From assembly GCA_963664015.2 (NCBI GenBank), contig CAXXLF010000002.1, positions 1,632,001-1,696,000 of the forward strand: a DNA stretch of 64,000 nt, read 5' to 3'. Both the position numbers and the translations under genes were made by a program. Origin of the DNA: Candidatus Binatia bacterium (GTDB lineage Bacteria; Desulfobacterota; Binatia; UBA9968; CAXXLF01). This document shows, in pieces, positions 2,550 through 51,165 of the stretch. Position 1 is the stretch's first letter, and each line of letters starts with the position of its first letter. A model generated the notes under the pieces. The model did not search any database and was not told where the DNA came from. It saw nothing but the letters and a program-made list of their open reading frames with translations.

Positions 2550-2770
2550 AGCCGCATAGCGCAGAGAGCAAAGCGTTAAAAATACTAACCGCAGATTTTC
2601 GCCGATTAACACGGATCTTTTCTGGCCGGTCCGGCCAGATCGAAACCCCTCTTATCTGCGAGTATCTGCGTAAAGCTGCGGTTGAAGAATCCGGATTCGA
2701 ATACTGTAAACTGGAGACTGAAAACTAAATACTTAACACTTCTTAGCTGAAGGCTGACAGCTGATGGCTA
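2550..2770. repeat. Composite intergenic repeat, locus A
   Basis: 10-mer-period arm TAACCGCAGATTTTCGCCGATTAACACGGAT (2586-2616), hairpin TCTGGCCGG-T-CCGGCCAGA (2621-2639), inverse arm ATCTGCGAGTATCTGCGTAAAGCTGCGGTT (2654-2683), palindrome GAATCCGGATTC, then heptamer runs; inverted copy at 7911-8088. Confidence 0.9.
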
Positions 2771-7887: not shown

Positions 7888-8215
7888 CAAAGCGCATGGC
7901 GTTCGGATTTTAGCTTTCAGCTGTCAGCGTTCAGCTAAGAAGTGTTGAGCGTTAAGTAATCAGTTCTCAGCATTCGGATCCGGATTCTTTCACCGCAAAT
8001 TTACGCAGATATTAGCAGATAAGAGAGGCTGCTATCTGACCGGACCGGTCAGAAAACATCCGCGTTAATCGGCGAAAATCTGCGGTTAATTGCTCTAAGG
8101 GTTTTCCTCTTAGCGCTTAGCTTTCTTACCGCCTACTGCTTGCTGCCGACTGTCTTACTGATTTGCGCTTTGCCGCTTCGTTCCCCCCTGTCTTTCTGAA
8201 CTCTGATCTCTGCCG
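7888..8215. repeat. Composite intergenic repeat, locus B
   Basis: 7911-8088 is the reverse complement of 2586-2770; about 8066-8159 is the reverse complement of 45760-45852; heptamer CTACTGC/CTGTCTT runs. Confidence 0.9.
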
Positions 8216-19492: not shown

Positions 19493-19519
19493 TCGGAAAT
19501 GCTGTCAGCCGAGCAAAGA

Positions 19520-19680
19520 AAGACAGTAAGCAGTTGGCAGTGAGCAGCCAGAAACCCGGAGCTGATAAGCTAGGTGCTCATAGCTAAACTTCCTCAGTCC
19601 TGTCTTACTGCTACCAGCTTGCTGTCTTTTTTAATCTGTTGCCCTGCTGCATACTGCCTACTGTAAGCTGTCTTACTGTT
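19520..19680. repeat. Composite intergenic repeat, locus C (inverted heptamer arms)
   Basis: AGACAGT AAGCAGT TGGCAGT GAGCAGC (19521-19548) followed by inverse arms CTGTCTTACTGC... and CTGCATACTGCCTACTGTAAGCTGTCTTACTG. Confidence 0.75.
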
Positions 19681-42180: not shown

Positions 42181-42204
42181 ATCAACCGGCACGGCCAAGC
42201 AGCC

Positions 42205-42660
42205 TGCATAAAAGCGCAAACCGCATGGCGCTTTGCGCAAAGCGTCATGACAATTAACGGCAGATTTTCGCTGATTATCGCAGATACGGATTCGGATATT
42301 TCACCGCAGAGATCGCAGAGAGCCGGAGGTAAGAGATCAGAAGTCAGAAATACTGTAAGCAGTATGCAGCAGAAACATTGCTAAGGACAGAATGCAATTA
42401 TTGTTTTGTTTGTCGGGAGACGACGACAAACAAAAAGGTGAGCACTTTTGCCCAATGGTCGTCTCCCGATTGGGCAAATATCCTTATCTTTACGAGCTTG
42501 GCGTCTTGGCGCGAAAATAGCTTTTCTTTGGTTATCTGTGGATATCTGCGTGTATCTGCGGTTAAAGAATCCGGATCCGAATACTGAGAACTAACAATCC
42601 GGACGCTATGCGGCCTGCGGTCCAGGCTGCCTACTGCAAACTGCCCACTGTCTTTCTCTT
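42205..42660. repeat. Composite intergenic repeat, locus D
   Basis: Opening arm 42255-42285 and closing arm 42534-42563 enclose a CGCAGAGA arm, heptamers, the twin hairpins 42404-42435 and 42447-42478, and a CTTGGCG arm; right flank AAGAATCCGGATCCGAATACTGAGAACT shared with A/B. Confidence 0.9.
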
Positions 42661-42723
42661 CCCCTCAGGGCTGACAACGTGGGGAGATTTGAGCTCCCCA
42701 CAGGATTGTGTATGATGGGCAAG

Positions 42724-42924
42724 ATGGATAAAATCGAACCCCTAAAAGATCACGTGGCGCTCGCCCGCTTCGCCCCGGGGGACAAGATCAGGTTTGGGGG
42801 CAAGACCTGCACCATTTGGAGCAAGACCACCCTCGCCTCCGGCGAGCCCGCCGTGGTCTTGCAGGGTGAAGGCAAACAGTTTGTCGTTCACGCCGCAGAG
42901 TTTCTCGAAGCGGTGAAAAACTAA
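42724..42924 (+). CDS. Small hypothetical protein (about 66 aa, beta-rich)
   Basis: Open frame ending 21 nt before the next gene; TATGAT 7 nt upstream of ATG. Confidence 0.55.
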   Translation: MDKIEPLKDHVALARFAPGDKIRFGGKTCTIWSKTTLASGEPAVVLQGEGKQFVVHAAEFLEAVKN

Positions 42925-42945
42925 GGTCTGAAAGACGAGGAAACC

Positions 42946-43938
42946 ATGGGACAAGTTCATCTGACACTAGCGTGCTGGGACTACGATCGAACCCGTCCCC
43001 TACAAGAGGGAAGGGCCCCCGTCGAAGGGGTTGATCTAACCTACTTACCCCTGCGGGTCGAAGAGACCTTTTGGCGCATGCTGCGCTATCAGGATTTTGA
43101 CGCCGCCGAGTTATCTATGGGGTCTTATCTAATGGCCCGGGATAAAGGACATCCCCGACTGATTGCCATTCCCGTGTTTCCGTCGCGGGCCTTTCGCCAT
43201 TCCTGCATCTATATCAATACGGGATCGGGCATCCATGATCCGAAAGACCTCGTGGGAAAGCGCGTTGGCGTGCCCGAGTATCAAATCACGATGGCGATCT
43301 GGGCGCGGGGGATTCTAGAGCATGAGTACGGGGTTAAACCGGAACAAATGAAGTGGTTCACCGGCGGCGAGGAGCAGCCCGGCCGGGTGGAAAAGCTCAG
43401 ACCGGATTTACCGAAGAACATCGACATTTGTGCGATTAGCCCGGAACAGACTCTCTCATCCATGTTGGAACGGGGAGAGATCGATGCCATGATTTCAGCC
43501 CACATACCTTCCCCTTTCGTACGGCGGTCGCCGAAGGTAGGCCGGCTGATTCCCAACTATCGCCAGGTCGAGGCCGACTACTTCCGCAAAACCGGCATCT
43601 TCCCGATCATGCACACGGTGGCACTACGCGAAGAGTTCTACGAGAAAAACCCCTGGGTGGCGCAGAGCCTGGTCAAGGCATTTGTCGAATCCATGCAGCT
43701 GTGCCAAGCATCCATGTACGAGTTCTCCGCTCTAAAGTATATGATGGCCTGGTCCATCGCTCAGATGGAGGAGGAAAGGGAACTCATGGGGGAAGATGCA
43801 TGGACCTATGGGCTGGAACCCAACCGGCATGTCTTGGAAACCCTTGTCCAGTATGCCCATGAACAGGGCCTGATCAAGAAGCGGCTGGAGGTAGGCGAAT
43901 TGTTTGCCCCCAATACCCTTGAGGATTTCAAGATTTGA
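42946..43938 (+). CDS. 4,5-dihydroxyphthalate decarboxylase-like / PBP2-fold protein
   Basis: LACWDYDRTRPL, FDAAELSM, AIPVFPSRAFRHS, VGVPEYQIT, TGIFPIMH. Confidence 0.82.
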   Translation: MGQVHLTLACWDYDRTRPLQEGRAPVEGVDLTYLPLRVEETFWRMLRYQDFDAAELSMGSYLMARDKGHPRLIAIPVFPSRAFRHSCIYINTGSGIHDPKDLVGKRVGVPEYQITMAIWARGILEHEYGVKPEQMKWFTGGEEQPGRVEKLRPDLPKNIDICAISPEQTLSSMLERGEIDAMISAHIPSPFVRRSPKVGRLIPNYRQVEADYFRKTGIFPIMHTVALREEFYEKNPWVAQSLVKAFVESMQLCQASMYEFSALKYMMAWSIAQMEEERELMGEDAWTYGLEPNRHVLETLVQYAHEQGLIKKRLEVGELFAPNTLEDFKI

Positions 43939-44009
43939 TCGCCGAGTGATCGCCAGACCCTTAATTCGGGTCAGGCGACAGTTCATTGGATTCAACAATT
44001 TAGGTAAAA

Positions 44010-44540
44010 ATGGCAGAAAATAAAGAAAACACCCCCGAGGAAATCAAGTGGTGGATTGAGCGCGGTCCCGTCAGGGAGAGAGAGAAAAAGAACGAGCCCC
44101 TCGGCGGGATTATCGAAAAGTGGGCTTATGAACTCCTTAAGGACTACAGCCAGGAGCAGGCCCTCAAGAGCGTTGCCGGCATCAATCAGCGGATTTTCAA
44201 GGACCTATCGGTAGCGCCCGGCGAATGGGGTTACCAGTCCCTCGATATTGGCAAATTCCACCCGGGCCGGCTGGCCAAGATCAAAGAAGTGCTCAAGCTA
44301 CCTCCCAACGCCAGGGCCCTGGTCATCGATGCTGCTTTTTCGGTGAGGATCCTCATCACCGGCGACCCCATCGGCGAGAGGGTCCTCGATCTCAACTTCA
44401 CCCCGCACCCTTCCATGGATTACTGGATCAAAGGCGAACTTGTGGAAGAACAGCTCTTTTCCGGCCTGGATCAGGCCTTGAGAAAACTGCGGCCGTTATT
44501 GAACCGCTACCTGGAGACTCCCCCAGAAGATCAGTATTAG
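44010..44540 (+). CDS. Hypothetical protein
   Basis: 176-aa ORF with typical codon usage; no recognised motif. Confidence 0.65.
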   Translation: MAENKENTPEEIKWWIERGPVREREKKNEPLGGIIEKWAYELLKDYSQEQALKSVAGINQRIFKDLSVAPGEWGYQSLDIGKFHPGRLAKIKEVLKLPPNARALVIDAAFSVRILITGDPIGERVLDLNFTPHPSMDYWIKGELVEEQLFSGLDQALRKLRPLLNRYLETPPEDQY

Positions 44541-44565
44541 CTATTGGGTATAATTAGACGAAAGT

Positions 44566-45705
44566 TTAAGCCTGCTGTTCCCGCGTTTCGGAACGTCGGT
44601 CATCCTTGGAACCCAACGGCACCGATGCGGTGACTTCCATACCGTACCCCGAAAGGGCAACGAGATTCTTGGGATTGTTGGTGAGCAGACGCATCTTTCG
44701 CACCCCCAGGTCTCTCAGGATCTGAGCGCCGATCCCATATTCCATGAAATCCCTATCATCCCCTTTCCTCCGATCCAGGGGCCCCATTTCTTTACCCTCA
44801 ACCTGTAGATACAGGATTACCCCCTTGCCCTCTTTGGCAATGATCTCCATGGAGCGGTGGATGACCCAGCGAGAATCGGGGGACGGAGAACCAGGAGAGG
44901 CAAGGCTTACCTCAAAAACGTCCCCGGCCACGTATTTGGACTGCACCCGCACCAGGGTTTCCTCATCGGGAGACAGCTCACCCTTGACCAGGGCCAGGTG
45001 CTCGCTGCCATCCACATGGGTGTTATAAACCACCGCGTCGACCACTCCTCCGGATCGAGTGGGAAGCTTAGCGGATGCGGCCCGGTAAACAAGACTGTCG
45101 CACTTGAGCCGGTACTGAATCAGATCGGGCACCGTACACAACTTCAACCCATGTTCCTCGGAAAAGGCCTCGAGATCGGGGAGCCGCGCCATCGTACCGT
45201 CATCCTTCATGACCTCGCAGATCACCCCGGACGGCTTCAAACCAGCCAAACGTGCCAGGTCCACGGACCCCTCGGTTTGACCGGCACGGACGAGGACACC
45301 GCCTTTCTTTGCCTGGAGCGGGAAGATATGCCCCGGGGTAACGATCTTACCTGCGTCCGCGGCATCGCCAATGGCGGCGAGAATGGTATAGGCCCGATCC
45401 GCCGCTGATATCCCTGTGGTGATGTTTTCCGCGGCATCGATGGTAATGGTAAAGGCCGTACCATAGGGGGAGGTATTATCGGCAACCATCATGGACAAGC
45501 CGAGCTTGGCTATATCTTCCTCGATCATGGGCAAGCAGATGAGACCCCGGCCATAGCGGGCCATAAAGTTGATGGCATCAGGGGTCACTTTCTCCGCTGC
45601 CATGCATAGATCCCCTTCGTTTTCACGGTTTTTGTCGTCCATCAGGACGACCATCCGGCCCTCGCGGATATCTTCGATAGCCTCTTCGATAGTCACTATT
45701 GCCAT
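44566..45705 (-). CDS. ribB: DHBP synthase with degenerate GTP cyclohydrolase II domain (RibBX-like)
   Basis: [34 protein letters not shown]; C-domain ends [12 protein letters not shown] but lacks the Zn-binding cysteines. Confidence 0.9.
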
Positions 45706-45754
45706 GGGAGTTCACTTTACCACGCCACCCCGGTACGTCAACAACGCCTGGGGG

Positions 45755-46135
45755 GGGAGAGTAAGACAGTAGGCCGTTTGCAGTAGGCAGTAAGAAAGCT
45801 AAGTGCTAGGAGGAGAGCCTTTAGAGCAATTAACCGCAGATTTTCGCTGATTATCGCAGATGCAGATTCGGATATCTCACCGCAGAGACGTTTTTCGACT
45901 GTGCACGGGACTGAGGGAAGAGTTTTTGCCCAATCGGGAGACGACGATTGGGCAAAAGGCCTCGCTTTCAAAAGCAGTATCTTTTTGTTTGTCGTCGTCT
46001 CCCGACAAACAAATAATATTTGTGTTCTGTTCTTAGCACTGTTCCTGCTGCCCATTGCATACTGCTTACTGTCTTTTGAATTGCTGCCTCCTGCCTACTG
46101 CCCACTATCTTAATTTCCGCGCAATGCGCTTTGCA
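45755..46135. repeat. Composite intergenic repeat, locus E
   Basis: Heptamer arm plus opening arm (45760-45861) matching B inverted and D direct; twin hairpins 45924-45957 and 45984-46013 inverted relative to D; inverse heptamer arms to about 46110. Confidence 0.9.
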
Positions 46136-46150
46136 CATGGTCGGTGTCAG

Positions 46151-46179
46151 TTGACCCTGTGGGTGCGCTCTACTATAGT
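46151..46179 (+). promoter_or_regulatory. Sigma70-like promoter of ispG (possibly leaderless)
   Basis: TTGACC-N17-TATAGT ending 6 nt before the GTG start. Confidence 0.6.
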
Positions 46180-46185
46180 TGAGGG

Positions 46186-50769: not shown

Positions 50770-51165
50770 CCTAACCGCAGATTTTCGCTGATTATCGCAG
50801 ACGGGAACACAGCAAAGCGCTAAGACAGGGCTATTACTGCGGGACAACTGACAGAAGGAAGACAGTTTGCAGTAGGCAGTAAGAAAGCTATGCGCTAAGA
50901 GTAAGGCAGTTTCAAAACTCAAAACCCTAAATCCGAAATAAATTTAAATAACAGAATACCTAATCTCAAAACTACAGAATTAAATAGGGTAGGGCTTTGG
51001 TAATTTTAATTTTGATATTGCTTAGAGTTTCGGATTTGGGATTTGGTGCTTTGGATTTAGAATTTATTATTTAGTCTGCGGATATCTGCATAAATCTGAG
51101 GTTAAATGTCTTCACTCTTTGCCCCTTGCTGCCTACTGTCTTACTCTTCCCCTCAGCGCTTTGCA
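50770..51165. repeat. Composite intergenic repeat, locus F
   Basis: Opening arm 50772-50801 and closing arm 51074-51103 enclose a CAGTAGG arm and an AT-rich inverted heptamer pair (AAATCCG-type about 50915-50965, CGGATTT-type about 51025-51065). Confidence 0.88.

Follow-up and report, generated by a model that had tools for sequence, protein, structure and literature searches.

How can the same short, regularly spaced repeats close off different DNA at different places in one bacterial genome? This question is raised by element D, which lies with elements A, B, E and F (Table 1) in the stretch of DNA that we analyzed, here called the window: 64,000 nt (C2:1632001-1696000) of a 3.51-Mb genome that is assembled in two contigs, C1 and C2, with 53.5% G+C. 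A sequence-only reading of the window had proposed that constant terminal arms enclose exchangeable cargo, as a cassette or a MITE would. The observation behind this proposal holds. The opening arm is present in all five elements for which it was claimed, with at most one mismatch (0 matches in 100 shuffles), the closing arm in all four (A, B, D and F), with one to three mismatches, and the interiors that these arms enclose are different. On the opposite strand, the closing-arm pattern also matches every one of the five opening arms, which makes the two arms reverse complements of one motif. This motif is 30 nt long and has a sharp TTAACC end, followed by three CGCAGAT heptamers at a period of 10 nt.

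Table 1. Elements, arms and inner modules, by position in the window
Feature	Position	Strand	Description
Element A	2586..2683	+	opening arm 2586-2615; closing arm 2654-2683; small GC hairpin in 38-nt interior
22-nt module beside A	2684-2705	+	common to A, B and D
Element B	7991..8088	-	built as A; opening arm 8059-8088, closing arm 7991-8020; 38-nt interior
Element D	42255..42564	+	opening arm 42255-42284; 249-nt interior; closing arm 42534-42564
D, link	42285-42303	+	between opening arm and CGCAGAG array
D, CGCAGAG array	42304-42329	+	nested inside the arms
D, first hairpin	42405-42434	+	TTTGTTTGTCG stem
D, second hairpin	42447-42478	+	TTTGCCCAAT stem; loop is the reverse complement of the first hairpin's loop
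Module AAGAATCCGGATCCGAATACTG	42565..42586	+	just outside D closing arm; also beside A and B
Element E	45763..46075	-	D-type interior in opposite orientation; one CGCAGAT arm, 45831-45860
E, hairpins	45925-45956 and 45984-46013	-	D-type twin hairpins
E, outer inverted arms	45763-45796 and 46042-46075		CAGTAGG/CAGTAAG word family, boxing E
Element F	50772..51103	+	arms 50772-50801 and 51074-51103; 272-nt interior
F, inner palindrome	50913-50970 against 51028-51068		heptamers of other words

The heptamer CGCAGAT by itself is not over-represented in the genome (416 exact copies compared to about 455 expected), while its near-match pairs number 86 at the 10-nt spacing and roughly 15 at other spacings. 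Scanning for three units at this period returned 61 candidates, 52 of which have a ACCGCAGAT-like start; one of these was dropped as a chance match (five mismatches, inside a long gene), which left 51 arms at 38 intergenic sites. Crude ORF calls cover 83-85% of the genome, and 46 of the 52 triple-heptamer candidates lie outside them. Five of the six that lie within an ORF fall in frames of roughly 100-145 aa that run through the repeat itself. Twelve pairs of arms converge at a distance of 500 nt or less, no pair is divergent or tandem, and the remaining arms are solo. None of 2000 strand shuffles reached 12 pairs, and random placement gave a mean of 0.37. The arms are therefore not distributed independently of one another; an independent distribution was what the sequence-only reading had named as refuting its proposal. 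All arm sites lie between protein-coding genes, in tandem (23), convergent (9) and divergent (6) contexts, and this occurrence in every gene context led us to reject a reading of the arms as terminators. Searches with the arm pattern in viral contigs and with Rfam in the window, at the gathering threshold, gave 0 matches each, and Tandem Repeats Finder reported a single row, with a 10-nt period in element E.

Aligning 36 arms on their first unit shows that conservation begins abruptly at TT, two bases before AACC, and weakens inward. Heptamer positions carry 1.1-1.9 bits, except at base 4 of the middle unit, which is variable (0.6), and at the final base of the third unit (0.7). At positions that played no part in selecting the arms, the outer TT carries 1.6-1.8 bits, the first spacer (TTW) 1.1-1.5 and the second spacer 0.5-0.7. 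Heptamer identity is 0.77 within an element compared to 0.78 between elements. Spacer identity is 0.30 within a pair compared to 0.45 between pairs, and 4965 of 5000 permutations gave a value at least as high as the observed one. Spacers are thus less alike within a pair, so each element tends to carry two different arm types, roughly TTTT-CGCYGAT-TAW and TTTA-CGCAGAT-other, the spacers of which do not pair. Two unlike arm types per element resemble the left and right ends of a transposon. Phased binding of a protein to the arms would fit several of these results, namely that the heptamers are conserved and the spacers are not, that the spacers of a pair are non-complementary, and that the heptamer word co-varies with the clade of a nuclease described below.

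The enclosed DNA is itself modular. The A/B type has four paired copies in the genome, with a small GC hairpin as interior, and the D type has seven paired copies and several one-armed copies, with a nested palindrome. The order of modules in the D type is arm, GGATTCGG link, three CGCAGAG units and hairpin, then about 10-25 nt, a second hairpin, inverse CGCAGAG units and arm. The stems of the twin hairpins are unlike (TTTGTTTGTCG, TTTGCCCAATCG), while their loops are mutually reverse complementary; of the 14 exact loop motifs found genome-wide, 12 are no more than 600 nt from an arm. In D and one further copy, the central hairpin pair is flipped relative to the other copies. The 22-nt module has six matches in the genome, five of them within 600 nt of an arm, and the repeat in A, B and D extends about 22 nt past the closing arm (AAGAATCCGGATYCGAATACTG), so the repeated unit does not always stop with its closing arm. 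Protein-coding interiors, for which the sequence-only reading had suggested a genome-wide search, amount to one: the arm pair at C2:1167693-1168144, outside the window, encloses a small ORF for a SHOCT-domain membrane protein, the stop codon of which abuts the arm. Other heptamer families (CAGTAAG/CAGTAGG, CTGACAG, GGATTTG) make palindromes or runs of their own in neighboring spacers, and sites of such families in the window are 19516-19632, 2740-2780, 7900-7950, 45763-46075 and 50913-51068.

Folded as single-stranded DNA, elements A, B, D and F each form a long, imperfect hairpin that is closed by the arms (A, -22.9 kcal/mol and z -4.8, with none of 200 shuffles as good; B, -24.1 kcal/mol, z -6.3; D, -52.6 kcal/mol, z -4.6; F, z -4.2), and no shuffle folds as well. 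That all four paired elements fold so much better than shuffles could point to an element acting at the RNA level, in which transcribed arms would form a stem cut by RNase III, as in the intervening sequences (IVS) of 23S rRNA, and gene-less copies would process, stabilize or terminate the RNA of the flanking genes. The orientation of the arms agrees with this, since the outer side is toward a gene 3' end in 24 of the 35 arms within 150 nt of a gene, as does the precedent of IVS, which the relevant part of one report describes as cut by RNase III and as enclosing a small ORF with a 28-bp terminal stem (PMC4990558). We nevertheless consider an RNA-level element unlikely: the stems are 7-bp helices interrupted by unpaired spacers, six of the 38 sites lie between divergent genes, no T runs follow the hairpins, and no Rfam family matches. 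The IVS protein, PF05635, was considered separately as cargo and rejected, because none of the three PF05635 genes in the genome has CGCAGAT arms. These three genes, on C1, are flanked by other heptamer runs, of the CTCTGAC type.

Comparison with genomes of the same family provides a potential explanation for the interiors of D and E. Our genome, at 97% completeness, has no match to the GxxExxY nuclease family (PF13366/TIGR04256). Among its relatives, G124 has five PF13366 matches and G121, G122 and G123 have none. In G124, a cassette with a broken gene (locus L183) runs from a CGCAGAT arm through three CGCAGAG units and the TTTGTTTGTCG hairpin to the GxxExxY gene, followed by the TTTGCCCAAT hairpin and three CGCAGAG units in inverse orientation. 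Each of these modules aligns with D and E, where only the gene, about 500 bp, is missing. The next cassette in G124 contains an intact gene of 132 aa (L185:5351-5749; TIGR04256, 144.6 bits), with CGCAGAT arms directly at both sides. Gene order places one of these cassettes in a spacer that is shared with our genome: G124 has prmA-rsmE-cassette-RDD-cassette, our genome has prmA-rsmE-element-RDD, in which the element is a gene-less D-type copy with a flipped interior (C2:1904161-1904494), and the rsmE-RDD spacer of G122 is 254 bp long and holds closing-arm remnants only.

These alignments show D and E to be homologous to a gene-bearing nuclease cassette. Because the GxxExxY gene is absent from our genome and present in G124 with the same modules, the copies in the window are derivatives rather than full members of the cassette family. 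The cassette behavior proposed from the window alone is thereby supported: G124 has a GxxExxY gene within the same arms and inner modules, once at an orthologous spacer, and in our genome they surround different non-coding interiors and, in one case, the SHOCT gene. D looks like a CGCAGAG-type cassette that lies inside CGCAGAT arms, and its counterpart gene in G124 belongs to the nuclease clade with arm words ending in G, described in the next paragraph. Arm copies with two or fewer mismatches number 52 in our genome, 3 in G121, 58 in G122, 0 in G123 and 178 in G124, while a control with the pattern reversed found 0. Exact arms do not make up an appreciably lower share in genomes without the gene (12 of 52 in ours and 10 of 58 in G122, compared to 46 of 178 in G124), so there is no sign of decay. 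This persistence of arms in our genome and G122, where the nuclease gene is absent, counts against derivation from a nuclease cassette.

PF13366, which the relevant part of one survey lists with function unknown and multiple transfers (PMC3424549), is carried by 39 of 121 genomes of the phylum, in up to nine copies per genome, and its presence varies within genera. We fetched 30 loci, of which 25 are full length. At 22 of these 25 GxxExxY loci, the flanking inverted repeat scores above all 50 shuffles, and the repeats are mostly three-unit heptamer arrays with words that include CACAGAG, CACGGAA, ACAGGAT, CGCAGAG and CGCAGAT. We built a tree of 32 nucleases, from the 30 loci fetched and three of G124 but without L163, where no motif-bearing gene was found; it has two clades with support of 98/97. 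The arm words, which were read by eye, end in G in 16 of 16 cases in one clade and in 0 of 16 in the other. Sister nuclease genes from different host families have the same arm words, and the three nuclease lineages of G124 each have a word of their own. The split between words corresponds to one change on the tree and shows that gene and arms travel as a unit, which co-inheritance alone, with no recognition of the arms by the nuclease, could explain. Many GxxExxY genes end on the closing arm, with its first triplet as their stop codon (loci L139, L141, L144, L157, L162, L181), and at L157 the reading frame begins within the opening arm. The catalytic D...ExK and GxxExxY residues are invariant in 16 of 16 nuclease sequences. 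A structural model of the nuclease has a pLDDT of 93.7 and a fold that matches generic PD-(D/E)XK proteins only (best TM 0.57 for a Cas4 and 0.44 for Hjc resolvases), and searching the Protein Data Bank with the sequence of the G124 nuclease returned 0 matches. A specific reading as a Holliday-junction resolvase is not supported, because the fold search gave no more than this generic assignment.

We hypothesize that the elements are gene-less, non-autonomous derivatives of a palindrome-bounded cassette for a GxxExxY nuclease (TIGR04256, PD-(D/E)XK fold), and we regard this as probably correct, with considerable room for doubt. The gene may have been deleted from a full cassette or may have been inserted into an empty palindrome. 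In the mechanism that we propose, each cassette end would present three heptamers one helical turn apart behind the fixed TTAACC terminus, and the cassette's own nuclease, or a multimer of it, would recognize these heptamers as phased sites. Cassette and empty copies would spread at the DNA level with the nuclease acting in trans, as REPINs do with RAYT. We infer both the binding and the mode of spread from the conservation of words next to free spacers, from the evolution of gene and arms as one unit, and from the REPIN/RAYT-like design. Every GxxExxY gene would then have been lost from our genome, which would leave its 38 sites as orphans. The orphans would now change by slippage of units (10-nt and 7-nt indels), by flipping of the interior between inverted arms, by internal deletion and by nesting of one array family inside another, and these proposed processes could explain how the same ends come to hold different interiors.

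Differences of single units are seen among strains. A strain that is about 3% diverged keeps D, with a closing arm (42543) that lacks exactly one 10-nt unit, and public contigs have a 7-nt loss and a 7-nt gain in the heptamer arrays at 46084 and 51128. The contigs of four public runs break at the elements, the joints listed derive from other repeat copies, and no joint that skips an element was seen among them. No RNA run was listed among the public runs that contain the region. Neither an empty site nor a target duplication nor an excision joint was seen in contigs, which counts against derivation from a mobile cassette. The outer TTAA is part of the palindrome and is inseparable from any target duplication.

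In the nearest genomes, the genes flanking D are only about 73% identical and gene order is not conserved across D. No arm is present in the spacer downstream of the AcrB orthologue of G121, G122 or G124, but the neighboring genes are different there. In G121, gcpE directly follows the AcrB orthologue, while the window has 3.9 kb between them (42181-46185), made up of D, three genes including ribBA, and E. In this one comparison, then, the gap between AcrB and gcpE holds D and E, so the border of the rearrangement coincides with repeats.

The position of the arms in the genome raises a different explanation, in which they are arrays for a host DNA-binding protein with a role in the chromosome, unrelated to the nuclease. 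Thirty of the 38 arm sites lie within C2:1.35-2.15 Mb, a 0.8-Mb stretch that includes the window. Since both the minimum of the cumulative GC skew (at about 1.74 Mb) and the point where gene strand bias switches fall within it, this stretch may hold the replication origin; dnaA is located elsewhere (C1:111756). Besides this clustering, the spacing of units by one helical turn, the conserved words with variable spacers and the retention of arms in genomes that lack the nuclease would all be expected of such arrays. However, the number of arm copies varies between 0 and 178 across five genomes of a single family, the word follows the nuclease clade, and no candidate host protein was identified, and we consider arrays of this kind distinctly improbable.

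Arms of the same sequence occur far outside the family. In a set of species-representative genomes, the exact 20-nt arm is present at at least 126 loci, compared to about nine chance matches expected by simple arithmetic. The record titles among the matches listed name at least nine phyla, with titles that include Bacteroidota, Verrucomicrobiota, Planctomycetota, Acidobacteriota and Chloroflexota as well as Desulfobacterota, Binatia, Alphaproteobacteria and Poribacteria. Among the 126 matches listed, 53 have the full three-unit profile and 23 a convergent partner, and these loci adjoin unrelated housekeeping genes. We scanned 170 of 193 candidate ORFs beside the external arms, in flanks of only 300-600 nt and at loci other than L110. 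The 150 ORFs from loci L005-L076 have no match to PF13366 or PF05635, and the 20 from L077-L127 include PF13366 genes enclosed by arms at L085 and L088. A GxxExxY gene is thus confirmed at only two of the 126 external loci listed, to which L110 is similar by eye, and this low number counts against a nuclease cassette as the source of the arms.

The same scan bears on the other half of the original proposal, an ordinary MITE moved by a DDE transposase with arm-matching ends and, for example, a TA or TTAA target duplication. The elements do have the outward form of one, with terminal inverted repeats, small size, many intergenic copies and TTAA at both outer ends. None of the 170 ORFs (150 from L005-L076, 20 from L077-L127), though, matches a transposase family, and the gene-bearing relative has a nuclease instead of a transposase. 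The only Y1 transposase-like match in our genome is sub-threshold and has no flanking arms. The only arm pair more than 500 nt apart encloses a gene for a thiamine-pyrophosphate enzyme; this sole pair looks like two solo arms, and a composite transposon built on long-range arm pairs was rejected for that reason. With no transposase carrying these arms, no contig that skips an element and no target duplication separable from the palindrome, MITE-type transposition finds no support here, and we consider an ordinary MITE highly improbable.

Returning to the nuclease, a broader version of the cassette model is possible, which we put forward tentatively and think rather doubtful. Here, GxxExxY nucleases with phased-heptamer arms would form a large, undescribed class of transposase-free mobile cassettes, in which the nuclease reads the three same-face heptamers of each arm and cuts the extruded hairpin or cruciform, and in which cassettes prefer the tips of other palindromes as targets. 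Such a preference would account for the nested arrays seen here and for related cassettes at helix tips of 23S rRNA. If this version were true, much of the unexplained excess of heptamers between bacterial genes would be cassette debris.

Even in the narrower form, a nuclease family of 130 residues and unknown function is bracketed by arms of this design at most loci examined. If the nuclease reads the arms, this would amount to DNA spreading without a transposase, and would explain what a widespread orphan protein family does and where much of the repetitive DNA between bacterial genes comes from. For assembly and annotation, the elements already matter: contigs of public runs break at them and spurious ORFs run through them. 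Searches of the main texts of PMC open-access papers and bioRxiv turned up no account of GxxExxY cassettes or of their arms.

Among known systems, REPIN/RAYT is alike in its short palindromic intergenic repeats, which occur as inverted doublets in many copies, and in a small gene that is bracketed by repeats and outnumbered by gene-less copies, according to the relevant parts of two reports (PMC3116915, PMC8266576). The enzymes differ, as the cassette encodes a PD-(D/E)XK nuclease fold and RAYT is an HUH Y1 transposase, and our genome lacks any enzyme gene. The repeats differ as well. A REP is a single GC-rich hairpin, the GTAG or CGTC tag of which is conserved according to part of one report (PMC3733652), whereas each arm has three phased heptamers and begins with TTAACC, followed by CGCAGAT units. 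No RAYT gene flanked by arms was found in our genome, where the single PF01797 match (22.4 bits compared to a cut-off of 23) is unflanked; the sub-threshold Y1-transposase-like N-terminus belongs to a 252-aa frame (C1:436524-436766).

The IVS of 23S rRNA share a few-hundred-base unit in which a terminal inverted-repeat stem of about 28 bp surrounds a small ORF, and the IVS of Coxiella burnetii is treated as sporadic and selfish in the pertinent section of the same report (PMC4990558). An IVS, however, is described there as lying in an rRNA helix, carrying S23p (PF05635) and being excised from the RNA through RNase III. Our elements occupy spacers between genes, and none of the three PF05635 genes in our genome is accompanied by CGCAGAT arms.

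The STRR heptamers of cyanobacteria are contiguous tandem heptamers with a period of 7, and differ in this from the arms, with their period of 10 nt. Calothrix repeats are mentioned in part of a report on the heptameric intergenic repeats of Xanthomonas and Nostoc (PMC4692102). The repeats of that report are, in its relevant part, intergenic 7-base arrays in which the number of units varies between relatives, as here, and often form convergent pairs, at 70-75 per Xanthomonas genome (PMC4692102). They are nevertheless contiguous 7-nt tandem repeats that the same part interprets as G-quadruplex formers (PMC4692102), while the arms here have a 10-nt period with a 3-nt spacer, three units each and a fixed terminus. 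With MITEs, the elements share terminal inverted repeats, a length below 600 bp, non-coding content and multiple copies, and they differ in having neither a transposase-bearing parent nor a demonstrable target-site duplication. Of the features of GxxExxY cassettes, the elements have the inverted arms of about three phased short units; the enclosed TIGR04256/PF13366 gene is absent here and present in G124.

Taken together, REPIN/RAYT, the 23S rRNA IVS, the Xanthomonas heptamers and MITEs are the closest systems, and a defining feature of each fails here. What our comparison adds is an orthologous spacer that holds a gene-bearing copy in one genome and a gene-less copy in another genome of the same bacterial family, together with the anatomy of twin hairpins and nested arrays, the two arm types, and the link between arm word and nuclease clade.
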